DNA from: an uncultured Gammaproteobacteria bacterium
GTDB lineage: Bacteria > Patescibacteriota > Patescibacteriia > UBA1558 > GWA2-36-10
NCBI GenBank assembly: GCA_964443785.1
Contig: CAYUER010000003.1
Location: forward strand, 1-44,999
Length of the DNA: 44,999 nt
Direction of reading: 5' to 3'
Part shown: positions 13,712 through 44,199 of the stretch, one piece after another
Layout of the letters: every line of letters starts with the position of its first letter
How positions within the stretch are numbered: position 1 is the stretch's first letter
Translations under genes and position numbers: made by a program
Notes under the pieces: model-generated
What the model saw: only the letters and a program-made list of their open reading frames with translations
Told to the model about the DNA's origin: nothing
Databases searched by the model: none

Positions 13712-13821
13712 AATGAATCCAGTCAGAAATTCATGAATAATGTTTATAATATATAGTATGATTTATTTGTTATAATTTTACTTTGGTAATAAAAGATTTA
13801 ATAATTTAAATTTCTAACTGG

Positions 13822-14376
13822 ATGAAATTAGTAGTAGGATTAGGCAATCCCGGAAAAGAATACCAACAGACGAGACACTCTTTTGGCTTCTTGGCTTTGG
13901 ATGCCTTATTAGAAAAAAAACAATTGAAGTGGTCTGAAAAAAAAGACTGCCAATCATTGATTGCTAGTTTTCAAGATGACAAGGATAAAATTATTTTATG
14001 CCAGCCACAAACTTTCATGAACAATTCTGGCGAAGCCGTCCAAAAACTCAAAAAATTCTACAAACTAAAAAATGATGATATCATTGTCATCTATGATGAT
14101 CTAGATTTACCTTTTGGTATATTCAAAGTGGCAGCCAAACGCTCTAGTGGTGGACACAATGGCATAGAATCAATCATCCAAGCTTTAAAATCTACTGATT
14201 TTGTACGCCTGAGACTAGGCATCGGCCCCCAGACTGGCAGTGCTGAAGATTTTGTTTTGAAAAAATTTAATACTACCGAAAAGAAAAAGCTACCAGAAAT
14301 CATTGACTCCTGTCACTTGGCTTTGGAGCTGATCATTAAAGATGGCTGGCAAGCAGCAGCCAATAAGTACAACTAA
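13822..14376 (+). CDS. pth: Peptidyl-tRNA hydrolase
   Basis: 184-aa ORF with MKLVVGLGNPG..Y..TRHSFGF, NNSGE and GGHNG motifs. Confidence 0.95.
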   Translation: MKLVVGLGNPGKEYQQTRHSFGFLALDALLEKKQLKWSEKKDCQSLIASFQDDKDKIILCQPQTFMNNSGEAVQKLKKFYKLKNDDIIVIYDDLDLPFGIFKVAAKRSSGGHNGIESIIQALKSTDFVRLRLGIGPQTGSAEDFVLKKFNTTEKKKLPEIIDSCHLALELIIKDGWQAAANKYN

Positions 14377-15942: not shown

Positions 15943-16008
15943 AATTTAGGTTTTCCACTGGACTACACAGGCCAGACAAAAAACCCAAGCACTAAAGTGA
16001 GGTGAAGC

Positions 16009-16176
16009 ATGAAAATCGAATTGCTCTGCTCCACTCCGCACTGCTCCAATCTGGTCGAAGAGGAGCCGGCAGACGCCAAGAGGCCACTCTCCAAGCTGCG
16101 CGCTACCGTGCGCTATTGCGCGGAGTGCATTGCCCGGGCAGACCAGGCCCAGCAGCCCAAGCTGCCGGGCATGTGA
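16009..16176 (+). CDS. Small GC-rich ORF: a 55-aa four-cysteine (zinc-ribbon-like) protein of unknown function
   Basis: MKIELLCSTPHCSNLVEEEPADAKRPLSKLRATVRYCAECIARADQAQQPKLPGM. The SD-like GAGGTG sits 5 nt upstream of the ATG. By hand count, 105/168 nt are G+C and 44/55 codons end in G/C, far higher than in the two overlapping track ORFs. A strong terminator follows. The ORF falls below the track's 60-aa cutoff. Confidence 0.4.
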   Translation: MKIELLCSTPHCSNLVEEEPADAKRPLSKLRATVRYCAECIARADQAQQPKLPGM

Positions 16177-16184
16177 CCACACTT

Positions 16185-16237
16185 CCGCCGCGCCCGACTC
16201 TGCAACAGCAGAGCGAGGCGCGGCGGATCTTTTTTTA
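16185..16237 (+). terminator. Strong intrinsic terminator after the small GC-rich ORF
   Basis: CCGCCGCGCC-cga-CTCTGC-aaca-GCAGAG-cga-GGCGCGGCGG gives 10+6 bp of perfect pairing with a symmetric internal loop. It is followed by ATCTTTTTTT. Confidence 0.65.
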
Positions 16238-16243
16238 TAAAAC

Positions 16244-16371
16244 AAAAATCCGCCTATCTCACACTGTCATCCCGGACTTGATCCGGGATCTCGCATTTAT
16301 TTGCCGTAAGGCAGAACAATGGTAGATTCCCGCCTTCGCGGGAATGACATTGCAAGAATTAGCGGATTTTT
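16244..16371. repeat. 128-bp imperfect palindrome (MITE-like) with 10-bp terminal inverted repeats AAAAATCCGC/GCGGATTTTT and two internal GTCAT..CCCG..CGGG..ATC hairpins
   Basis: Terminal inverted repeats lie at 16244-16253 and 16362-16371. One internal hairpin is GTCATCCCGGACTTGATCCGGGATC (16265-16289, + strand). The other is GTCATTCCCGCGAAGGCGGGAATC (16349-16326, - strand). The centre is GCC-gtaa-GGC. The element lies immediately 3' of rplA. Confidence 0.5.
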
Positions 16372-28070: not shown

Positions 28071-31019
28071 TTATTTATTTAATTTGGCATATGGACAAAT
28101 CTGAGCAAAATCACAAGTCGCACATACATGACCCGGCGTAGCTGTAAAATCTACAGCTAAAATTTTCTCAATAATATCTTGAGCCCAAATTTTTACTTTT
28201 TCTTTATCTTTATCACTACCAATAAAAGTCACTGGTTTATTGGCTCCCAAATAATAATAAGTCAAACTAGCTACTTGGCTTTGAAAAATTTCTTCAGCCG
28301 CAATTTGATAAAGCAATAATTGTTTTTTGTCCGCAAAACTAATTTTATCATCTTTGACTTTACCAGTTTTATAATCAATAATATTCCAAGTGCCATCAGG
28401 ATTGGTATCGACGCGGTCAATCACACCCCTGATAGTATAATCACCAATTTTTAGATTAAAACCTTTTTCCAAATAAAGAGTCTGTGGCCAATGACCAGTA
28501 TTGAGCTCAAAATATTCTTTTAATATCCTAGTCCCTTCTAGTTTATATTTCTCCTCTTCTGATTTTGAATCATACCACTCATCAATCCACGACTGCTCAT
28601 AGAGACCAAGTAATTCTTTGAGTGTCGGCTCTTGAGCTTTGGTAGCCTGCTGAAACAAATCAGCTTGTACAGCACTGCGACGCTCAGCCAGTAGCTCAAA
28701 AAACTGCTGCAAAGTAGCGTGCATGGTCTTACCAAAACTAAAGTGGGCATTGCCAATGGTCGGAATCTTGGCAATATAGGCATAAAAATATTGACGCGGA
28801 CAATTTTCAAAAGCTGTCAATTGTGAAAAAGAAAAATGTTTTGGTGTAGGATATTTTACTTTTTTGGCTGCTACCGACACCTTGGCTGTCTCTGTGTCAT
28901 TTTTTTTGTTTACTTGCGCTTTGAATTTCAAATTTAACTCACTCAAAAACTGCGAAGCTTTTTTGTCACGCTGACCACCATAGTCTTTGGCTAGGGTCAA
29001 AAAAACAGCTTTTTTTGCTCGAGTCAAAGCGACATAAAACAAACGCCTCTCCTCTTGAATATGAGCATCACCAGTTGGTAATTTTTCTTTGATGAAGTCT
29101 TCTGGCATATCAATCGGATCCTTGCGCTCAGTACTCGGGAAGCGTAAATGCACTAAATTGGTCACAAAAACATACTTAAATTCCAAACCTTTGGCACCAT
29201 GGACAGTCATGACTTTGACTACATCGGGACCCTCGTCAGTATCCTGAGCTAGTGATCCTGCCTCGCCAGACTCAAGCTCCAGATCAAAAGCGCGTAAAAA
29301 TTCGTGCACAGTCGTGCCTTGTAGAGCCTCTTCTTCCCAAGCTCGCACTTTTTTATAAAACTGATTAAGAAAATTTAGTTGCTCTTGGTTGTAAGCTGTT
29401 TGCTCAATAGTCAATAATTGCAAATAACCACTATCCTCTAGCCAAGTATAAATCAACTGTGAAACAGCTTGGGTTTTGGCTAGACTGGTATGTTTAGCTA
29501 AGGAGCTTAAAAAATTATCTAAAATCTTTTTTTCCGCTGGCTCGACACTCACTTCTCCTTGATAATTATTTAAAGCGTGATACAAGCTCCAATTTTTTTT
29601 ATTGGCTAGATGACTCAAGTTAATAATTGTCTCCACATTGATATTAAATAAAGGCAAACTCAATATCCTGAACAAAGCGGTTGACTCATGATAATTATCC
29701 AAGAGCTTGAGATAGGCCATGATATCCAGAGTAATATCCTGAGCATAAAGACCCTTGGAAGCCACATATTGATGTGGTAGACCTATTTTGCGCATAGTAG
29801 CCACAAAACCACTAGCTTGTTCATTGGCGCGGACCAAAATAGCAAAATCAGACCATTGCAAATCTTTTTCCGCTTTTTTGAGAGCAATTATTTTTTTGAT
29901 CACTCCATCAATCTCAGCATTTTTGTCAGTATATTCCAAAACTTGAACCTCACCCTTATCAGTGCTATGGCTGATTAATTTTTTACTAAGTTTTTGTTCA
30001 CCAATCTGATACTGATACTCCAAACGATCAGGATTATTTTGCTGAATAAAATCATAAGCGCAATCCAATATCAACTGACCAGAACGATAATTGTCTACTA
30101 GAAATACCTCCCGTAAAGCTTGCTCTTTATTTTTACTATATTCTTCTTTGAAATTTAAAATATTGGAAATAGCCGCTCCTCGAAATTTATAAATCGCCTG
30201 ATCATCATCGCCAACAACCATCAGATTATTTTTGGGAGCGGCAATTAATTTTATCAATTCATATTGCGCCCAGTTGGTATCTTGAAACTCATCAACCAAG
30301 ACATATTTAAATTGCTCCCGAAATTTTTTCAAGATAGCAGGACGCTCTTTAAATAATTTAATTGTATAATTTATCAAATCACCAAAATCCAAAGCATTAT
30401 TGTCTAGCAATAATTGCTGATAAACATGATAAGCATTAGCAATTTCCTGCAGACGCTTGGCTTCTTGATCAATATCTTCTCGATCTTTGGCCACATCAGT
30501 ATCCAGTTGAATTTTTTCGGCGTGCGCTAAATAATCTTCTGGATAAATTACTTCATCTTTGCAACGCGAGAAATGATTGAGTAGTGCATGGATAAATTTT
30601 GTGGGATTACCCAATGGTCGATAATAATCCAAAGCAAAACGATCAAGATTTTGTCTGACTAGCATCCACGAAGCAGTTTTATCTACTAGTTTAAAATCAT
30701 TCGGCAGACCAATATCTAGTCCATAACTTTTCAAAACTCTTTCACAAAAACCATGAAAAGTATTTATCCACAAATCAGCGTAGCCCAGAGGCAAAAGTTT
30801 ATCGACTCTTTCAATCATCTCACCGGCTGCTTTGTCCGTAAAAGTCATAGCTAATATTTCATCGGCCTTGGCTCGACCCTGCTCGATCAAATAAGCAATA
30901 CGCTGGCTGATCACTGTAGTCTTACCAGTACCAGCGCCAGCAATCAAAATAATAGGACCCTGATCGTGGGTCACGGCCTGATATTGCGCTAAATTAAGCT
31001 TTGATAAGTCCTGTGACAT
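28071..31019 (-). CDS. UvrD/PcrA-type SF1 helicase fused to a C-terminal PD-(D/E)XK (Cas4/AddB-like, 4-Cys) nuclease domain
   Basis: Helicase motifs are present: AGAGTGKT (Walker A), VLVDEFQDTN and VGDDDQAIYKFRGA. The C-terminus has ENC...GVIDRVD...IIDYKTGK...CATCDFAQIC (C-x(n)-C-x2-C-x5-C). The track start at 31094 overlaps the terminator of the upstream gene, so the ATG at 31019 (MSQDLSKLN) or 31028 is likely. Confidence 0.9.
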   Translation of the reverse strand: MSQDLSKLNLAQYQAVTHDQGPIILIAGAGTGKTTVISQRIAYLIEQGRAKADEILAMTFTDKAAGEMIERVDKLLPLGYADLWINTFHGFCERVLKSYGLDIGLPNDFKLVDKTASWMLVRQNLDRFALDYYRPLGNPTKFIHALLNHFSRCKDEVIYPEDYLAHAEKIQLDTDVAKDREDIDQEAKRLQEIANAYHVYQQLLLDNNALDFGDLINYTIKLFKERPAILKKFREQFKYVLVDEFQDTNWAQYELIKLIAAPKNNLMVVGDDDQAIYKFRGAAISNILNFKEEYSKNKEQALREVFLVDNYRSGQLILDCAYDFIQQNNPDRLEYQYQIGEQKLSKKLISHSTDKGEVQVLEYTDKNAEIDGVIKKIIALKKAEKDLQWSDFAILVRANEQASGFVATMRKIGLPHQYVASKGLYAQDITLDIMAYLKLLDNYHESTALFRILSLPLFNINVETIINLSHLANKKNWSLYHALNNYQGEVSVEPAEKKILDNFLSSLAKHTSLAKTQAVSQLIYTWLEDSGYLQLLTIEQTAYNQEQLNFLNQFYKKVRAWEEEALQGTTVHEFLRAFDLELESGEAGSLAQDTDEGPDVVKVMTVHGAKGLEFKYVFVTNLVHLRFPSTERKDPIDMPEDFIKEKLPTGDAHIQEERRLFYVALTRAKKAVFLTLAKDYGGQRDKKASQFLSELNLKFKAQVNKKNDTETAKVSVAAKKVKYPTPKHFSFSQLTAFENCPRQYFYAYIAKIPTIGNAHFSFGKTMHATLQQFFELLAERRSAVQADLFQQATKAQEPTLKELLGLYEQSWIDEWYDSKSEEEKYKLEGTRILKEYFELNTGHWPQTLYLEKGFNLKIGDYTIRGVIDRVDTNPDGTWNIIDYKTGKVKDDKISFADKKQLLLYQIAAEEIFQSQVASLTYYYLGANKPVTFIGSDKDKEKVKIWAQDIIEKILAVDFTATPGHVCATCDFAQICPYAKLNK

Positions 31020-31050
31020 ATAAAGCATTTTAACCAATATCAGTAAAAAA

Positions 31051-31100
31051 GGCAAAAAGAAAAAGGGCTCTTGTCTACGCCCTCTGACAAACAAGAACCC
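31051..31100 (-). terminator. Intrinsic terminator of the GC-rich gene
   Basis: On the minus strand, GGGTTCTTGT-16 nt-ACAAGAGCCC (one mismatch) is followed by TTTTTCTTTTTGCCTTTTTT. Confidence 0.55.
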
Positions 31101-31133
31101 CCTTGCCCAAACTAATGGGCTGTGCTGTTGATC

Positions 31134-31685
31134 TTAATCAACGACGAGGGCCTGGCAATCTGCCAGTTTGATGGAAAGAACCTCTCCCCGATTGGCCTCG
31201 GGGATAAAGAGGCTGGTGACCTGGAAACTGCCGTCCAGCGCCGCCTCCAGGTGAGCCTGCTCACGCTGGGAAAGCTGGCCGTACCGCAAAAGCTGCTGAG
31301 CCTTGTCAAGGACTGTTTCCTTGAAAAGTCGTTGAGCTGACCTGAGGTCAGCAGCGTGAGCTTCCTTCTCCTCCTCCAAGGAGCCGAAAGCCTGACTGCC
31401 TCCGTAGGCCAGGCAATTCTGGTGATGAGCCAAGAACAAGTTCATAGCCCCGTGATTGGCGATCGTGATCCTGACCAGGTCCTCGGTCACCTCTTCGGTG
31501 ACATGGCAACCGCGTCGGTGGCGCAGAGTAGCTCCTGGCCGGTTGTAGGGGTCGATCATGGGCCCACCAGCCAAGCGACGCACCACTGCCAAGGTGGTGT
31601 CGGTCCAATGACCGTCGATGCAGCCAATGACTGCCCCATGGTAAACCTTGTGACTCAAATTCCTTCCTCCTTGCTGAGCTTCCAT
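31134..31685 (-). CDS. GC-rich homolog of the adjacent 149-aa protein, with a beta-carbonic-anhydrase-like CxDxH...HxxC signature. Function unknown.
   Basis: The sequence MEAQQGGRNLSHKVYHGAVIGCIDGHW...RPGA...LFLAHHQNCLAYGGSQAFGSLEEEKEAH aligns to ...LAVIKCVDFRF...WPGSA...LLLWHWDCGAYGGSSNFASAQEEEAAY of ORF 31792-32241. Two hand-counted 60-nt lines gave 58% and 65% G+C. An alternative start is the TTG at 31658, preceded by AAGGAGGAAGG and a 7-nt spacer. The track start at 31754 is the TTG of a TTGACA promoter box. Confidence 0.75.
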   Translation of the reverse strand: MEAQQGGRNLSHKVYHGAVIGCIDGHWTDTTLAVVRRLAGGPMIDPYNRPGATLRHRRGCHVTEEVTEDLVRITIANHGAMNLFLAHHQNCLAYGGSQAFGSLEEEKEAHAADLRSAQRLFKETVLDKAQQLLRYGQLSQREQAHLEAALDGSFQVTSLFIPEANRGEVLSIKLADCQALVVD

Positions 31686-31725
31686 TGGTATATGGGAGAA
31701 TAGCTCCCGTGAAAAAGGAAAACAT

Positions 31726-31761
31726 ATTATGGACCAAAAATAAAAAAATGTCAATAGACAT
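31726..31761 (-). promoter_or_regulatory. Putative promoter of the GC-rich gene (TTGACA-17 nt-CATAAT). The -35 lies inside the near-palindrome ATGTCTATTGACAT.
   Basis: On the minus strand, TTGACA (31754-31749), a 17-nt spacer, then CATAAT (31731-31726). The 14-bp palindrome at 31761-31748 has one central mismatch. Confidence 0.4.
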
Positions 31762-31791
31762 TTTTTTATATAATACTTATTTTAAAATATT

Positions 31792-32241
31792 TTATTCCAA
31801 AATTGTATATTCCAAACCCTGTGGCACAGCCTTGGAATAAGCCAAGACAATTTCTAAATCAGTAGGTAAATCTGGACTCAACATATCTCGGACAGTACGC
31901 AAATCTTTTTGATAGGCAGCCTCTTCTTCTTGAGCTGAAGCAAAATTGCTACTACCACCATAAGCACCACAATCCCAGTGCCAGAGTAAAAGCAATTTTT
32001 TGACATGATGCAAATTTTTAGAAACTGCAACCATCTTTTCAGCAAAAGACATTTTAAAACCATTGTTTTTCAAAACATCTTTGGCGCTGCCTGGCCAAGC
32101 ATAGAGATCAAAATTTTTGTAACCCAAGTGCTTCTCTACAAACTCCTGATCTGATTCTCTAAAGCGAAAATCAACACATTTGATGACTGCCAAGGGGCAT
32201 TCATGTTCAGCGAGCAAATCGTTTGGTACAATGTATCCCAT
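31792..32241 (-). CDS. Small protein with a beta-carbonic-anhydrase-like zinc-ligand signature (C-V-D-F-R ... H-W-D-C-G-A). Native-composition copy.
   Basis: 149-aa ORF containing VIKCVDFRF, about 23 aa later WPGSA, and about 37 aa later LLLLWHWDCGAYGG. This spacing mimics the beta-CA CxDxR / HxxCG arrangement. AT-rich codon usage matches the rest of the window. Confidence 0.55.
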   Translation of the reverse strand: MGYIVPNDLLAEHECPLAVIKCVDFRFRESDQEFVEKHLGYKNFDLYAWPGSAKDVLKNNGFKMSFAEKMVAVSKNLHHVKKLLLLWHWDCGAYGGSSNFASAQEEEAAYQKDLRTVRDMLSPDLPTDLEIVLAYSKAVPQGLEYTILE

Positions 32242-39459: not shown

Positions 39460-40191
39460 ATGCTAAGCCATAAAGAGCTAGATTTGCTTAAAAGTTTGCA
39501 AACCAAAAAAGGCCGCGACCAAGAGGCTTGTTTTTTGCTAGATAACCCCAAAGTAATTGGAGAAAATATCAAATCCCCTTATTTTCAAAAATTATATGTT
39601 ACTGAGGAAATAGGCCTCAAATACCAAAAATATTGGGCACATACTGACTACACTATCATCAATGGCTCGGAGCTCAAAAAAATATCACCCAGCTCCACCC
39701 CGCAAGGTGCCGTAGCTGTCTTTAAAATTTTACCAAGTATAAAATTTGACCATCAATCAAAAACAGTATTATTACTCGACGGTATCCAAGATCCTGGCAA
39801 TGTCGGCACTATTTTGCGGACAGCTGATTGGTTTGGTATCAAAAATATTTTCTTGAGTACAGAGTGTGCTGATATTTACAATCCCAAGACTATCGCGAGT
39901 AGCATGGGCTCAATCTTTCATATCAATTTTTATCAAAATCAAAATTTGAGCGAAGTGGTCAAAAATTTACAAAAGAATAAATATAAAATTATCGCTAGTA
40001 CTAGTCATGGTGACAACAATGTCTTGACTGCAGATAAACAGGCTATCATTATTGGTAGTGAGGCTCATGGCGTCTCTCAACAATTATCAGAGCTAGCCGA
40101 CGCTCACTACCAAATACCAAAATACGGGCAAGCTGAATCACTCAACGCTGCTATTGCTGCTGCTATCATCATGTATCAAATAAAAAAATAA
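39460..40191 (+). CDS. TrmH/SpoU-family RNA 2'-O-methyltransferase
   Basis: 243-aa ORF with SpoU motifs LLLDGIQDPGNVGTILRTA, IIIGSEAHGVS and ESLNAAIAAAIIMY. Confidence 0.88.
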   Translation: MLSHKELDLLKSLQTKKGRDQEACFLLDNPKVIGENIKSPYFQKLYVTEEIGLKYQKYWAHTDYTIINGSELKKISPSSTPQGAVAVFKILPSIKFDHQSKTVLLLDGIQDPGNVGTILRTADWFGIKNIFLSTECADIYNPKTIASSMGSIFHINFYQNQNLSEVVKNLQKNKYKIIASTSHGDNNVLTADKQAIIIGSEAHGVSQQLSELADAHYQIPKYGQAESLNAAIAAAIIMYQIKK

Positions 40192-40201
40192 AGGTAAAAA
40201 T

Positions 40202-40813
40202 ATGTCATCAGAAAAATTCAAAGACAGCAATACAACTGAAAAAGATCAGCTACTCGATCAACTATTGGCTTTGGACAAAAATAACCCTGCTTATGAACAG
40301 GAAAAAGATATTATAGAAAAAGAGCTCAACAAAATATCTCAAAATCCAGAAGAAACTATCAAGGCTCTCAATCGACGCGCCGAAATAAAACTATCCCCCG
40401 TTGATAAATATCAAGCCGCCGAAAAATACCAAGAACTCGAGGACGCCAAAGCTGTCGATCAACTCTTGGGTGAAATAAGTAGCATTGCGCCTACAAATTT
40501 TGCTGAGCAAAAACCAAACTACGCCGAGCAGGCGGCTCTATACTTTCGCCCCCTGAGCAACACTGCCCAAGCAGTCAAAAAGGCCATCCGTGCTTTTAAT
40601 TGGCGATCGTTCCGACAAATCCCTAAGGTCGAAAAAGAAAATTTATGCGCTCAAATAGACAGAATAGTGATGGAGGCCAAAGTCGAAGCTGCCAAACAAT
40701 ACCAAGAAGCCCAAGCCGATACTATCACTATCAATCGCGTCATCAACGAGGCTAGATACCAGATCCAAAAAATAGCCGATGATCGGCACATCAAAATACC
40801 TGAAGAATATTAA
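40202..40813 (+). CDS. Hypothetical acidic, helix-rich protein
   Basis: 203-aa ORF starting 10 nt after the trmH-like stop. No motif was recognised. Confidence 0.55.
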   Translation: MSSEKFKDSNTTEKDQLLDQLLALDKNNPAYEQEKDIIEKELNKISQNPEETIKALNRRAEIKLSPVDKYQAAEKYQELEDAKAVDQLLGEISSIAPTNFAEQKPNYAEQAALYFRPLSNTAQAVKKAIRAFNWRSFRQIPKVEKENLCAQIDRIVMEAKVEAAKQYQEAQADTITINRVINEARYQIQKIADDRHIKIPEEY

Positions 40814-40820
40814 AAACTAA

Positions 40821-40854
40821 ATCAGCCCAGCCCCTCGCGAGGGGCTGGGCTGAT
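40821..40854. terminator. Bidirectional intrinsic terminator between convergent genes
   Basis: A perfect 34-nt palindrome, ATCAGCCCAGCCCCTCG/CGAGGGGCTGGGCTGAT, followed by TTTTT on the + strand and TTAGTTTT on the - strand. Confidence 0.7.
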
Positions 40855-41898: not shown

Positions 41899-42579
41899 TT
41901 ATTTTTTAATAATATGATTATTTAAATTAACTAAACCGTTATAAATATTATAATAATAAATTAAATATAACGGCATTACCAGAAAAAAAGCAATGATAGT
42001 AAAAAAATTTAAAATTGTTAATATTAAAAATAAAATTGGAATTGGTAATAACAGTCTCTTTATTACACCTTTTTGAGATTTACTAACTAATTCTTTACTT
42101 CTATCCCAAGCTGCTCTACCATATAAATTTTCTGCGAGCACAACCCAAAACACAAAAACATAATCTGGCCATAAAAAAATACCAGAAGAGAAGTTAGTTC
42201 CTAAAATTTTTAAAAATTTATCATGAGACATTTTAAAAGTAGACCATAATTTTATGTTTTTATCATTCTTCACAACAACTACGGCCATACCAATAAATCC
42301 CAAAAGTAAACAATAAAGACTAAAAAAGCCCGCTGGCAAACTAAGTAAAATATTAATAGCACCGCTTAAATCATATGTTATAGGAATAAATAGATCAACT
42401 AAAGAAGCTATTATGCCTACTACCGCAAAAGATAAAAGACCAGATAATCCCAAAAAAAACATACCTAGAAGCTGCCAAAATAATTTTTTATAAACCTGAA
42501 AAGATTTAATAAATAATTCCGAAACAGACATTAATCCAACTTGATTACCTTCCAGGCTTTTAATATGATTCATGGTCAT
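41899..42579 (-). CDS. Hypothetical polytopic membrane protein (paralog of the upstream gene)
   Basis: 226-aa ORF. It shares SVSELF..SF......FW...GM..L at the N-terminus, A...RSKELV in the central loop, and Y..Y..LV.LN at the C-terminus with ORF 42581-43354. Confidence 0.65.
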   Translation of the reverse strand: MTMNHIKSLEGNQVGLMSVSELFIKSFQVYKKLFWQLLGMFFLGLSGLLSFAVVGIIASLVDLFIPITYDLSGAINILLSLPAGFFSLYCLLLGFIGMAVVVVKNDKNIKLWSTFKMSHDKFLKILGTNFSSGIFLWPDYVFVFWVVLAENLYGRAAWDRSKELVSKSQKGVIKRLLLPIPILFLILTILNFFTIIAFFLVMPLYLIYYYNIYNGLVNLNNHIIKK

Positions 42580-42580
42580 A

Positions 42581-43354
42581 TTATTTATTTAAATCGACTA
42601 AACTTTTATAGATATGGTAGCCATAAGCCAAAGAAAATGGAGTAATGATCAGTGAAATCACATCAACAATAAATGAATAAATTTTATCAGCTGTTGATTT
42701 TTCTTCGATAAACATAGATGGTATGACGAGCACCAACCAAACGGTAAACCCAAAAAGAAATAATCTGCCGAAAACTGACCACCATCTACCTTTGACCAGC
42801 TCTTTACTGCGACGCATAGCTGCTTTATTTTTTAAACCTTCAAACATAAAAATCCAGGCTACAAAGTTATAATAAATTCCCATGATAATACCAGGCACAA
42901 TGAGTAACAAGGTCCATAGAAATATAAAAATAGAAGCTAACGCGTTTGTTTCAAAAAAACTAATAGCTTGAGATCTGGCAACTTTAAAGGTTGGCCAAAT
43001 TTTTGGATCACTATCTTTATTCTTGATCAACAAATAAGTCCCCACTTGAGCTATCAAGTAAGCATAAACTGCAATAATTATAGCAAACAAAGCCACAATG
43101 CCTAAGATCACGTATATGGCTATCGACGCGATCGAGCCTAATTTGGAGGAAAAAGAATATGTTAAATAAAATAAAGCTGCCATCAATGCTATCGGTATGT
43201 AAGTCAACATAGGCAAAAGATTCATGCCAATCACTTTCCAAAAAATATTTTTACTAAGTGCAAATGATCTAGAAAATAATTCTGATACAGAAATTAATTT
43301 TCCATTTGCCTGGCTTACGACACTAGTTGTTGGCGTTGTTTCCATAAGATACAA
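42581..43354 (-). CDS. Hypothetical polytopic membrane protein (paralog of the downstream gene)
   Basis: 257-aa ORF with the same conserved blocks as ORF 41899-42579. The intergenic gap is 1 nt. Confidence 0.65.
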   Translation of the reverse strand: MYLMETTPTTSVVSQANGKLISVSELFSRSFALSKNIFWKVIGMNLLPMLTYIPIALMAALFYLTYSFSSKLGSIASIAIYVILGIVALFAIIIAVYAYLIAQVGTYLLIKNKDSDPKIWPTFKVARSQAISFFETNALASIFIFLWTLLLIVPGIIMGIYYNFVAWIFMFEGLKNKAAMRRSKELVKGRWWSVFGRLFLFGFTVWLVLVIPSMFIEEKSTADKIYSFIVDVISLIITPFSLAYGYHIYKSLVDLNK

Positions 43355-43362
43355 ATTAATTT

Positions 43363-44199
43363 TTAGTTATTTATATTAAACAATTTTTTAGCGTTTTGAT
43401 TGGTAATTTCTATAATCTCCGATTTTTCTTTCGCTAAAATATGCGATATTTTTTCGGCCACATATTCGACATAGAGTGGTTCATTTCTTTTTCCTCGATA
43501 AGGCTCTGGTGCTAAATATGGTGCATCGGTTTCTATCAAAATTTGTTCGAGTGGTATAGTCCGGACAATTTTTTCTAAAATACCAGTCTTATCAAAAGTG
43601 ATGATGCCAGTCACACCGATATAAAAACCCATCTGAACTAGCTCTTGAGCCTCCTCAACACTGCCACCAAAACAATGTACAACCGCTCGCTTGATCTTTG
43701 ATTCTTTTAATAGCTGGCAAATATCCCTATAAGCCTCTGCCTCATCCTTGTCTGGACTAGGCGAGGTGGGCTTGCCATTTCTACCATGGACAATGACTGC
43801 TAGATTATTTTTTTGGGCTAATTCAATATGTTGTAAAAAAACTTTTTTTTGCCTAGCCTTAATCTCCTCAATTGATTGCGCGCCTTTGGCAAAGCTCATG
43901 TCAAAATGATAGTAGTCAAAACCCGTCTCACCCATAGCAACAATCTTGCCGGGATGCTGGTCAATCAAAGACTGAAATTTATCTGCCGCAAAATCTTCAT
44001 CAAAAACATGGATGGGATGCAGACCTAAACTCGCATAAAAATTTTGACCATCAGCAATCTCTGCAGCTTTTTGTGAACTATCATAAGCAGCTCCGACATT
44101 GACCGCAGATAGTCCAGCCTGCCTGCAGCGAGCCATGACTTCAGCTCGATCTTCGTTGAAGGCTTTGAAATTAAGATGAGTATGGGAATCAAAAAGCAT
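43363..44199 (-). CDS. tatD: TatD-family metal-dependent hydrolase/DNase
   Basis: 278-aa ORF with MLFDSHTHLNF, GETGFDY, VVHCFGG and IETDAPYL motifs. Confidence 0.9.
   Translation of the reverse strand: MLFDSHTHLNFKAFNEDRAEVMARCRQAGLSAVNVGAAYDSSQKAAEIADGQNFYASLGLHPIHVFDEDFAADKFQSLIDQHPGKIVAMGETGFDYYHFDMSFAKGAQSIEEIKARQKKVFLQHIELAQKNNLAVIVHGRNGKPTSPSPDKDEAEAYRDICQLLKESKIKRAVVHCFGGSVEEAQELVQMGFYIGVTGIITFDKTGILEKIVRTIPLEQILIETDAPYLAPEPYRGKRNEPLYVEYVAEKISHILAKEKSEIIEITNQNAKKLFNINN

Follow-up and report, generated by a model that had tools for sequence, protein, structure and literature searches.

A GC-rich gene beside a patescibacterial ATP-synthase operon is better explained as an old, exchanged carbonic-anhydrase-like allele than as a recent import

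Atypical base composition is a standard cue for horizontal transfer, and the stretch of patescibacterial DNA analyzed here (44,999 nucleotides, hereafter the window) raises the question of whether that cue can be trusted. In a host genome of about 39% G+C (window GC 0.389), a short GC-rich patch carries a gene, here called B, that lies between its AT-rich neighbor A, just downstream of the ATP-synthase operon, and a helicase gene. A first-pass annotation of this DNA had read the patch as a cassette recently acquired from a high-GC donor, and the features on which it drew are all present where it had placed them. For gene B, however, the cue gives the wrong answer. The explanation that we favor, with good confidence, is that A and B form an old syntenic pair of carbonic-anhydrase-like genes, that B is a hypervariable allele exchanged between lineages, and that its GC-richness is maintained in place. 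The locus comprises the following features:

31792-32241, minus strand: gene A, encoding a 149-aa Pro_CA_2 protein, AT-rich, with the motifs CVDFRF and HWDCGAYGG; conserved partner and paralog of B
31740-31769, no strand assigned: perfect 13-nt inverted repeat, ATAAAAAAATGTC-n4-GACATTTTTTTAT, which includes the -35 box of B
31726-31754, minus strand: promoter of B, TTGACA (31754-31749), 17-nt spacer, CATAAT (31731-31726)
31659-31722, minus strand: 5' leader of B, with the pyrimidine tract UUUUCCUUUUU (31722-31712), a hairpin (31708-31694) and the Shine-Dalgarno sequence (SD; 31672-31666)
31134-31658, minus strand: gene B, TTG start, 174 codons plus TAA, encoding a B-type Pro_CA_2 protein; GC-rich and hypervariable
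31051-31133, minus strand: 3' UTR and intrinsic terminator of B, stem 31104-31061 followed by TTTTTCTTTTT
31017-31055, minus strand: helicase promoter and probable start, TTGCCT-17-TAAAAT (31055-31027), with the ATG (31019-31017) 7 nt later

The patch had been described as roughly 60% G+C from about 31110 to 31700, and 60-nt windows do reach 0.65-0.68 GC within 31210-31600; beside the gene, at 31720-31810, lies an AT-rich stretch in which such windows fall to 0.13-0.30. The coding sequence of B (31137-31658, minus strand) has a GC content of 0.586 (GC1 0.66, GC2 0.41, GC3 0.68), and the segment has no GC skew. Measured against 750 open reading frames (ORFs) of the same genome (GC 0.396 ± 0.054; GC3 0.382 ± 0.084), B stands at z = 3.5 for GC and z = 3.6 for GC3, a composition atypical for the host. 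Codon choice is switched as well, as had been noticed earlier (AAG 0.88 versus 0.23, TTC 0.68 versus 0.12, CTG 0.42 versus 0.09), and ATA, CTA and TTA do not occur in the gene at all.

B is a monocistronic unit, and the earlier description of it as self-contained, with its own promoter, SD and terminator, is borne out at each of these elements. The promoter matches 11 of the 12 sigma-70 consensus positions and is nearly invariant across 12 genus sequences, and the B genes of other genera each have a TTGACA-17-TAnAAT promoter of their own. The 13-nt inverted repeat, whose sequence is conserved genus-wide, may serve as a weak terminator of A, as an operator, or as both. Both the GGGAG (31708-31704)/CTCCC (31698-31694) hairpin of the leader and the strong SD, AAGGAGG, seven nt upstream of the TTG at 31658, can be read directly from the DNA. 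Two start codons had been offered, of which the TTG stands and the ATG at 31685 does not: the TTG and its SD are conserved in 12 of 12 distinct genus sequences, giving a product of 174 aa, and in several of these sequences the ATG either falls in another frame or is missing. When the leaders are folded jointly with RNAalifold, the pyrimidine tract pairs with the SD in an 11-pair helix, and the pairing of the inner hairpin is preserved through two double changes. The conserved leader may mask the strong SD in this manner, which we infer only, because the single-sequence fold is no more stable than shuffles (z -0.4). At the other end of the unit, the terminator, previously placed at about 31100-31051, folds with -31.8 kcal/mol (z -2.8), is followed by a T tract, and was found in all relatives examined. 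It is overlapped, as had been remarked, by a "helicase" ORF opening with a TTG at 31094. The true helicase start is probably leaderless, at the ATG 31019-31017, and the TTG-31094 extension is probably an artefact of ORF calling; the TAAAAT-N7/8-ATG arrangement at the helicase start is conserved in relatives, whose helicase homologs measure 985-991 aa.

What B encodes is suggested by its neighbor. By sequence comparison B is a paralog of A (28% identical, E 4e-13), and both resemble Pro_CA_2, a beta-carbonic-anhydrase-like zinc-site family. Gene A, which has an ordinary composition (GC 0.39, GC3 0.34) and is 90-98% identical within the genus, matches Pfam PF20393 (Pro_CA_2) with 44 bits at a cut-off of 30. 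The B protein of the window scores 28.6 bits against the same profile (E 1.8e-6; gathering cut-off 30 bits), and its orthologs have precomputed PF20393 matches. A profile of B matches the small beta-carbonic anhydrase Rv1284 (1ylk) across both ligand motifs (E 0.006), and when the AF2 model of B (pLDDT 82) is compared with the PDB by Foldseek, the top two hits are the beta-carbonic anhydrases 7coi (probability 0.98) and 3eyx (0.82), though at a TM of only 0.37-0.40 and an E of 2e-3. The invariant residues of B are Cys13, Asp15, Pro41, Gly42, His69, His79 and Cys82. Among these, the putative zinc ligands C13, H79 and C82, which lie in C-x-D and H-x-x-C motifs, are unchanged in 18 B sequences and align with the motifs of Rv1284. 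The Asp-Arg dyad (C-x-D-x-R) is incomplete in the B protein of the window, where Asp15 is the invariant one and the position of the Arg is taken by His (CIDGHW); most B alleles have Ala, Glu, Asp, Trp or Leu there, and only genomes G001, G005 and G006, with their CIDPRF/CVDPRF subtype, and L018 retain the Arg. With an overall dN/dS of 0.07-0.29, the B protein is under purifying selection as judged from these alignments, and the predicted Cys/Asp/His/Cys metal site is kept. B may be a zinc-binding partner or variant of A in a CO2/bicarbonate-type chemistry. A literature search turned up no Pro_CA_2 member.

How long has the GC-rich gene been in this place? The order atpC-A-B-helicase recurs in JGI and Logan contigs, in the genomes of the genus and in those of the family, and in five of the six other genus species, as in at least eight further genera of the family, the same site is occupied by an equally GC-rich B. 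A single small clade on a long stem (SH-aLRT 99) unites the B-type proteins, of which there are only about 14 among the 306 matches obtained from 1.84e9 representative proteins. Every B-type gene whose locus was read sits in the slot between A and the helicase of one Patescibacteria family, and among these loci none was found anywhere other than in the atp-A-B-helicase slot. At some loci a CMAS methyltransferase gene adjoins B. In all 15 genomes tabulated, the GC3 of B is higher than that of A (by 0.26 on average; p 6e-5 in a sign test), the difference ranging from 0.10 to 0.39 across genomes, and B is elevated too at two further loci found after that table; it stands 0.07-0.22 above the local background. 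Judged by this distribution, the age of the GC-rich gene is that of the family itself, and the A-B pair is old and syntenic. B may have originated when A was duplicated in tandem, or it may have been acquired very long ago, and the tree fits both.

Gene B is hypervariable, too. Over precisely the stretch from about 31660 to about 31070, identity to relatives is 25-75% instead of 85-100%, such that the hypervariable part extends from the start codon to the terminator only and coincides with the GC-rich stretch; the 3' UTR upstream of the terminator stem is as variable as the coding sequence, and identity is back from about 31069. B alleles share 45-83% protein identity, whereas the flanks are 85-98% identical. 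Across six relatives, the flanks show a dN of 0.014-0.05 and a dS of 0.36-1.1, as opposed to a dN of 0.21-0.54 and a saturated dS in B. In AU tests, clades of the B tree are rejected by the flanks and clades of the flank tree by B (p = 1.5e-50, 7e-43, 3e-6 and 0.04), and since the allele tree disagrees with the flank tree, the alleles have been exchanged between lineages. B therefore behaves as a cassette, and this part of the first-pass reading holds. In one species (G002) B is absent and its slot holds a 367-aa CsoSCA_cat protein (28.2 bits, cut-off 21.5); this genome is the only one of 23 searched family genomes with a CsoSCA-like gene.

Whether the composition of B is decaying or maintained can be judged from its substitutions. 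To the nearest strain, the dS of B is 0.22 and that of the flanks 0.19-0.25, with a dN/dS of 0.07 for B. In this closest pair, polarized third-position changes from A or T to G or C (W>S) amount to 6/15 in B versus 14/185 in the flanks (p 0.0013), although these numbers are low, with six W>S events in the cleanest pair, and parsimony with saturated outgroups is biased; changes in the opposite direction (S>W) amount to 8/67 and 7/72, respectively. Over all triplets, W>S changes are 47/114 in B versus 164/970 in the flanks (p 1e-8) and the S>W rates are equal, an excess that recombination among B alleles, all of them GC-rich, could mimic. Expressed per site, the AT-to-GC rate at third positions of B is 2.5-5 times that of the flanks and the GC-to-AT rate is the same; the closest pair gives the fivefold value. 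From these rates, B would reach equilibrium at a GC3 of 0.61-0.77 and the flanks at 0.37-0.45. Given an equal dS together with a higher third-position AT-to-GC rate, the GC-richness of B therefore appears to be long-standing and maintained in place, against the AT pressure of the genome. Local hypermutation, whether of a diversity-generating-retroelement-like (DGR-like) or a transcription-associated kind, was rejected because B and its flanks have the same dS to the nearest strain and the segment is without GC skew.

The model that emerges can be put as follows. B would be the second member of an old beta-carbonic-anhydrase-like pair downstream of the ATP-synthase operon, and its alleles would, in the simplest case, be swapped through homologous recombination within the conserved sequence on either side, promoter/leader and terminator/helicase. 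Most alleles, that of the window included, have lost the catalytic Arg of CxDxR while retaining the predicted Cys/Asp/His/Cys metal site, and in one species the slot holds a different gene of the carbonic-anhydrase type, the CsoSCA-like one. Within B, AT-to-GC third-position changes are fixed 2.5-5 times more often per site than in the neighboring genes. Paralogy, synteny, GC elevation throughout the family, hypervariability confined to the GC-rich segment, discordant trees, purifying selection and the substitution bias are results of the analysis; the cause of that bias and the biochemical role are inferred.

Other readings of the locus have to be weighed against this model. That a cassette was recently acquired from a high-GC donor is very improbable, even though the atypical composition and codon usage of B (z about 3.5), its self-contained layout with promoter and terminator, and the presence of further small GC-rich ORFs in the genome would all invite that reading: it fails because orthologous loci in relatives, in five of six other genus species and at least eight genera, carry an equally GC-rich gene in the same place. 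Moreover, the promoter and leader are native and conserved, B is paralogous to its neighbor, its dS to the nearest strain is that of the flanks, and its synonymous substitutions fit a maintained GC-rich state and not decay. A donor lineage, for which a search with the B product had been proposed, was not found among 1.84 billion representative proteins, nor was any B-type homolog away from the slot. The junctions of B carry no flanking direct repeats, target-site duplications or other insertion scars, and the whole window carries no tRNA gene. A defence or phage origin of B was rejected in the absence of meaningful PADLOC or PHROGs matches. The chance that the patch is an artefact, be it an assembly or binning chimera or a fortuitous ORF in a GC-rich non-coding or RNA element, is practically negligible. 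It is true that the host genome is a metagenome bin of 53 contigs (all compared genomes are likewise metagenome bins or contigs), that GC-rich DNA is poor in stop codons, and that long antisense ORFs occur here. However, contigs from four separate sequencing runs, assembled independently, are collinear at 94-95% identity through both junctions, where misassembly had been a concern, and the gene order recurs in additional contigs and genomes; in addition, the dN/dS of 0.07-0.29, the invariant metal-site residues, the confident AF2 model, the absence of an Rfam match and an alignment without conserved RNA structure all argue for a genuine protein-coding gene.

Two further readings concede that the gene is not a newcomer or that it moves, and account for its composition differently. 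In the one, B entered the ancestor of the family by a very old transfer, and its GC-richness, a remnant not yet fully ameliorated, decays passively. B may be a xenolog, because a long stem separates the B-type proteins from every A-type Pro_CA_2 protein and their sister is not A; moreover, the raw third-position counts in B are 82 S>W versus 47 W>S. Such an excess of raw S>W changes is nevertheless expected near equilibrium with G or C at 73% of the scored sites; synonymous sites have been saturated many times over, and yet the GC3 of B remains above that of A in every genome; and W>S changes per site outpace those of the flanks at equal S>W, giving an equilibrium GC3 near that observed. We consider passive decay improbable. 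In the other reading, which we regard as quite unlikely, the slot is a recombination docking site repeatedly refilled from a GC-richer pool (other lineages or mobile elements), so that the composition of B mirrors this pool and not a force within the host genome. The incongruence of gene tree and flank tree speaks for it, as do the CsoSCA-like gene in the G002 slot, with relatives widespread in other Patescibacteria, the CMAS methyltransferase gene beside B at some loci, the unrelated GC-rich inserts of a second GC-rich island of the genome (island 1), whose lengths differ by species, and the natural competence and homologous-recombination genes reported for Patescibacteria (PMC12455944). Against it, every B-type gene with a locus read occupies the same slot in the same family, B is GC-richer than every family background (the highest being about 0.46-0.52), and its GC tends to follow the local background (rho 0.48, p 0.07). 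Furthermore, B and flanks of the nearest strain pair share their dS, so this pair descended vertically, and it still shows the W>S excess.

If the GC-richness of B is maintained in place, as we favor, what maintains it? Our tentative candidate, the likeliest of several but itself less probable than not, is that selection favors an mRNA rich in GC and uncommon codons and strongly folded, with effects on stability or on translation rate. The coding sequences of B fold better than synonymous-codon shuffles in six of six alleles (mean z -2.6, as against -0.8 for A; Mann-Whitney p 0.03), a modest and uneven excess (z -0.8 to -5.0, from 40 shuffles of six related alleles), and the whole B transcript reaches z -3.9 versus dinucleotide shuffles. 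A recombination-associated fixation bias would be a somewhat unlikely cause. Bacterial genes with evidence of recombination are reported to be GC-richer independently of selection on codon usage (Lassalle et al. 2015, PMC4450053); a recombination-linked bias fits poorly because swapping of whole cassettes puts the heteroduplex in the AT-rich flanks (0.13-0.30 GC). Repeated import from a GC-richer pool is unlikely to be the source of the bias. Translational optimization was discarded, as rplA, rplK and atpD use the opposite codons (in rplA, TTC 0/6 and AAG 5/33). A mere preference for G-ending codons, the idea behind a wobble-modification regulon, found no support, as C3 is raised as much as G3 and avoidance of A3 is the main feature. 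A structured RNA gene does not account for the composition either: the whole window contains no Rfam match at gathering thresholds and no tRNA or tmRNA gene, and the B alignment holds no conserved RNA structure (consensus -69 kcal/mol versus about -200 for single sequences).

B is not the only GC-rich locus of this kind. It had been proposed that islands 1 and 2, the latter being the B patch, resemble each other and may have the same origin; the cassette layout and behavior are indeed shared, but a common origin is not supported, since the likeness lies in behavior and not in sequence. In island 1, conserved flanks surround a variable GC-rich core, in which Rfam gave chance-level matches only. 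A further locus, C6:6002-6667, is syntenic, has a GC content of 0.56-0.61 and is 36-71% identical within the genus. Across 39 kb of the window, four 150-nt windows reach GC ≥ 0.54, and conservation is poor in every one of them. As a two-way rule, the equation of GC-rich with variable was rejected, as the variable segments 40185-40854 and 41924-43369 have normal or low GC; it holds in one direction only. It is conceivable, if rather doubtful, that B, island 1 and C6:6002-6667 represent a class of small self-contained cassettes at fixed slots in this genus and family that are hypervariable between close relatives and actively kept GC-rich in an AT-rich genome. If so, composition would be a trait maintained locus by locus, and would say nothing of where a gene came from; mRNA stability or translation might be controlled through it or, alternatively, it might reflect a fixation bias of unusual local strength that accompanies the exchange of cassettes, and GC-rich islands in such genomes would systematically be misread as recent transfers. 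Should the pattern prove general, island calling in ultra-small bacteria would need changing, and these loci, in which many alleles sit between identical flanks, would provide a natural system that separates mRNA selection from biased gene conversion, as well as a set of fast-turnover genes probably relevant to strain-level ecology. As to physiology, the conserved carbonic-anhydrase-like pair beside the ATP-synthase operon and the CsoSCA-like replacement point to a role in CO2 or bicarbonate chemistry, which may be a part of the physiology of Patescibacteria that has escaped study and could matter.

Compared with known enzymes, B is like the small beta-carbonic anhydrases (M. tuberculosis Rv1284/CanA, 1ylk) in that its C-x-D and H-x-x-C motifs align with their zinc ligands and its top fold matches are beta-carbonic anhydrases; gene A has the full CxDxR and HxxCG motifs of these enzymes. 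Unlike them and the PF20393 family, the B protein of the window is extended at its C-terminus by a helical hairpin of about 45 residues and falls narrowly short of the Pfam cut-off, and unlike other Pro_CA_2 members ("putative carbonic anhydrase"), the B-type proteins form a separate, narrow clade. Among the CsoSCA-like proteins of Patescibacteria (PF20686 CsoSCA_cat), the G002 copy belongs to the beta-carbonic-anhydrase structural class, lies exactly in the B slot and, like B, is GC-elevated (about 0.49 versus about 0.33). However, this protein is, at 367 aa, without detectable sequence similarity to B, and its family is large (1570 matches) and found mainly in other families of the order. 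The leader of B can be likened to fourU-type RNA thermometers, which are leaders that sequester the SD, as its 5' U-rich tract can pair with AAGGAGGAAGG (A-U, G-U); it would differ from them in that its fold is no stabler than shuffles and its conservation is mainly at the sequence level.

As regards the behavior of the locus, GC-biased gene conversion resembles it insofar as B is a recombining GC-rich locus with a W>S fixation bias whose codons are not those of highly expressed genes, and differs from it in that recombination at B swaps whole cassettes, with the heteroduplex in the AT-rich flanks. Integron gene cassettes are promoterless ORFs with an attC site beside an integrase; this description does not fit, every B having its own -35/-10 promoter and ending in a plain terminator hairpin with a T tract. 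In replacement-type flexible genomic islands or islets, of which O-antigen and capsule loci are examples, differing alleles or genes occupy one site between conserved flanks. Unlike the O-antigen and capsule type, B is a single small gene of cytoplasmic type and not a cluster for a surface structure; its core is GC-richer than the genome where the cores of such islands are AT-richer, and its boundaries are the gene's own start codon and terminator. The B slot nonetheless shares with these islands a sharp-edged divergent core, conserved flanks and discordant trees, as well as, in one species, a non-homologous but functionally related gene in the same place.

Gene B, the GC-rich open reading frame of island 2, is an ancient, allele-swapping and persistently GC-rich paralog of a carbonic anhydrase (CA)-like gene. 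It lies in the following setting:

31017-31055, promoter and start region of the helicase-nuclease gene (UvrD + PDDEXK), whose annotated start, TTG-31094, would cross the B terminator
31137-31658, minus strand, gene B
31792-32241, gene A, the AT-rich upstream neighbour of B

The first-pass annotation located and described the island accurately. B has 58.6% GC in a window of 38.9%; its promoter (TTGACA-17-CATAAT) matches at 11 of 12 positions; its leader contains the GGGAG/CUCCC hairpin, a Shine-Dalgarno (SD) sequence AAGGAGG 7 nt upstream of TTG 31658 and an in-frame ATG at 31685; and its terminator has a folding energy of -31.8 kcal/mol (z -2.8). GC at the three codon positions is 0.66, 0.41 and 0.68 (GC1, GC2, GC3), 60-nt windows range from 0.65-0.68 GC within the ORF to 0.13-0.30 in the promoter region, and, set against 750 ORFs from its own 0.81-Mb genome, B stands about 3.5 standard deviations over the mean in both GC and GC3. 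Its codon usage avoids A-ending and AT-only codons (A3 0.09 vs 0.25, AAG 0.88 vs 0.23). Translation starts at TTG 31658, with a product of 174 aa: this TTG and its SD are kept in all 12 distinct genus sequences, and the ATG upstream is out of frame or absent in several.

The annotation's reading of the island as a recent cassette from a high-GC donor is, however, refuted by a finding that it had itself held to speak against transfer, namely that relatives carry a GC-elevated B at the same site. A search of 5.8 billion clusters yielded nine close homologs, and all contigs read for them show the gene order atpD-atpC-A-B-helicase, interrupted in some genus members by a CMAS-type methyltransferase gene that follows B and precedes the helicase. 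This gene (CMAS/cyclopropane-fatty-acid-synthase type, 372-393 aa; loci L005, L010, L012, L047 and L066) is absent from the window. A search of 61 genomes, namely that of the window plus 60 from relatives, located the tandem A-B pair in 5 of the 6 remaining species of the genus and also in family genera g2, g3, g4, g10, g13, g20 and others. GC was elevated in B each time: GC3 was higher in B than in A in all 15 of the 15 genomes tabulated (mean +0.26, sign test p 6e-5), and two more B-type representatives occupy the same slot with GC likewise elevated. When 1.84 billion representatives were searched exhaustively with an HMM, 306 matched, only about 14 of them B-type, and no donor lineage appeared; the B-type proteins form a single clade, with an SH-aLRT of 99, at the end of a long stem. 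Neither a tRNA gene nor flanking repeats were found at the junctions; over the whole 45 kb of the window there is no gene for a tRNA or tmRNA, and no Rfam family reaches its gathering score. Across both junctions the window is matched collinearly, at 94-95% identity, by four assemblies that come from different sequencing runs, thus excluding misassembly there as far as contigs can show.

What does hold of the cassette idea is that alleles are swapped between lineages. The GC-rich segment, about 31660-31070, is exactly where identity to genus relatives drops from 85-100% to 25-75%, to rise again beyond it; in B, conservation of promoter, leader and terminator tail is far above that of the coding sequence. 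In the nearest strain, dS in B (0.22) equals that of the flanks (0.19-0.25) and dN/dS of B is 0.07, so that hypermutation is absent and selection is clearly purifying. In six other relatives the flanks show dS of 0.36-1.1 and dN of 0.014-0.05, whereas dS in B is saturated and dN reaches 0.21-0.54. Maximum-likelihood trees of B and of the flanks (concatenated atpC, A and the N-terminal part of the helicase) are in strongly supported conflict, and in AU tests each rejects the other's clades (p = 1.5e-50, 7e-43, 3e-6 and 0.04). From this divergence contrast and tree conflict we infer that the B alleles predate the surrounding DNA and have been passed between lineages. The simplest route of exchange would be homologous recombination within the conserved flanks; for Patescibacteria, both natural competence and genes for recombination have been reported (PMC12455944).

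Why, then, is B GC-rich? In the closest pair, polarised changes to G/C are seen at 6/15 ancestral third-position A/T sites of B, compared with 14/185 in the flanks (Fisher p 0.0013), with equal reverse rates (8/67 and 7/72). Pooling four triplets gives 47/114 vs 164/970 (p 1e-8), reverse rates again being equal. These rates imply that GC3 would have its equilibrium at 0.61-0.77 in B, against 0.37-0.45 in the flanks. Together with the saturated synonymous divergence and the elevation in every genus, this substitution pattern argues that the GC-richness is maintained in place and is not a relic, with the reservations that the counts are small, that parsimony is biased and that GC-rich alleles may have recombined with one another.

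As to the cause of this maintenance, translational optimisation was rejected, the codon usage of rplA, rplK and atpD being different from that of B. Selection on the mRNA, for stability or for slow translation via uncommon codons, is a tenable explanation, although we would put it short of probable: the B coding sequence folds better than synonymous-codon shuffles in 6/6 alleles (mean z -2.6, against -0.8 for A; Mann-Whitney p 0.03) and the whole transcript scores z -3.9 against dinucleotide shuffles, but the alignment reveals no specific structure conserved across B. A fixation bias linked to recombination seems to us somewhat unlikely; recombining bacterial genes are reported to be GC-richer (Lassalle et al., PMC4450053), yet a whole-cassette swap would put the heteroduplex in the flanks, which are extremely AT-rich. 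Repeated import out of a GC-richer pool we regard as less likely still, and what weight remains falls to some cause beyond these three.

The protein itself resembles carbonic anhydrases. Against PF20393 Pro_CA_2 ("putative carbonic anhydrase") A scores 44 bits and B 28.6 bits, just below the cut-off of 30; an alignment of the pair has 28% identity (E 4e-13). Among 18 aligned B-type sequences C13, D15, P41, G42, H69, H79 and C82 are invariant, and the profile built from them matches Rv1284 (1ylk), a small beta-carbonic anhydrase, over the two ligand motifs (E 0.006). For the AlphaFold2 model of B (pLDDT 82, pTM 0.80) the PDB entries that match best are two beta-CAs, at a probability of 0.98 and 0.82, though TM is only 0.40. 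The motifs CxDxR and HxxCG are complete in A; B of the window reads CIDGHW, the dyad Arg being gone as in most alleles, and one allele subtype (G001, G005, G006) keeps CIDPRF. On family, motif, profile and model evidence, B is thus a beta-CA-like protein with a zinc-type site, a derived active site and a putative activity.

The one genus member without B, G002, holds in its slot a protein above the Pfam cut-off for CsoSCA_cat:

L068 (G002:C7:28300-30500), ORF 693-1796, CsoSCA_cat-type gene, 367 aa

This gene is likewise GC-elevated (about 0.49 vs about 0.33), and its product shows no sequence kinship to B. It belongs to a protein family that is large in Patescibacteria (1570 matches). Of the genomes sampled, the remaining 22 searched from the same bacterial family lack the gene, and four from other bacterial families, which have no Pro_CA_2 match, carry it. 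That B has been replaced in place by a gene again of carbonic-anhydrase type is an argument for a role of the slot in CA-related chemistry.

In B the -35 box sits within a perfect 13-nt inverted repeat, A7TGTC-n4-GACAT7 (31740-31769). Conserved within the genus, this repeat may be an operator or regulator site, or a weak bidirectional terminator ending the A transcript. RNAalifold pairs the leader 5' UUUUCCUUUUU with the SD of B (11 pairs), and in the L003/L046 lineage the inner leader hairpin stays paired through two double changes; the leader fold has no extra stability over shuffles. Given the weak start codon, maskable SD and uncommon codons, we conjecture that B expression is restrained or conditional. 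Directly past the B terminator lies the helicase promoter, TTGCCT-17-TAAAAT, with an ATG 7 nt after the -10 box, a layout kept in relatives, which suggests a leaderless mRNA starting at ATG 31019. The called helicase ORF does overlap the terminator, as had been noted; the supposed N-terminal extension is an ORF-calling artefact.

Island 1 (about 15950-16370) adjoins copies of a dispersed palindromic repeat:

16009-16176, plus strand, ORF of 55 aa with four Cys, SD GAGGTG and a strong terminator
16260-16350, palindromic units GTCATTCCCGCGAAGGCGGGAATC and ATCCCGGATCAAGTCCGGGATGAC, dispersed repeat family

Copies of the repeat occur on C25 and C27 of the same genome, in G002 (about 20 matches) and in other genera. 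Relatives keep the flanks of island 1, but in place of its core they carry GC-rich inserts, about 180 to 750 nt long, for which no similarity to the core in the window was detectable at the DNA level. The kinship proposed for islands 1 and 2 therefore holds for composition and layout, as a class, and does not extend to a demonstrated common origin. Elsewhere, the GC-rich ORF C6:6002-6667 is syntenic in five genus genomes (protein identity 36-71%) and has GC 0.56-0.61 vs 0.35-0.37 in its flanks in the four where it is readable; C16:18224-18751 is patchy within the genus. Over 39 kb of the window compared with six genus genomes, 150-nt windows with GC of at least 0.54 are poorly conserved (4/4). 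Segments 41924-43369 (GC 0.30) and 40185-40854 (GC 0.42) are also poorly conserved and, being AT-rich or normal, indicate that hypervariability is not confined to GC-rich DNA. About 15 other small GC-rich ORFs (GC3 0.60-0.79) lie on contigs C1, C4, C6, C12, C16, C22 and C23, C1 having many GC-rich stretches; they include:

C1:23535-24197, lipoprotein-like ORF
C22:305-709, type IV pilin-like ORF
C4:4316-4786, HTH protein ORF

An AT-rich element of about 115 nt (13713-13835), repeated in the genome (C6, C19) and in many copies in genus relatives, breaks otherwise collinear alignments.

B probably exemplifies a class of such slots in the lineage, and island 2 is more interesting than a routine genomic island. 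The locus falls among known kinds, both as a replacement-type variable locus and as a case of compositional heterogeneity tied to recombination or selection.
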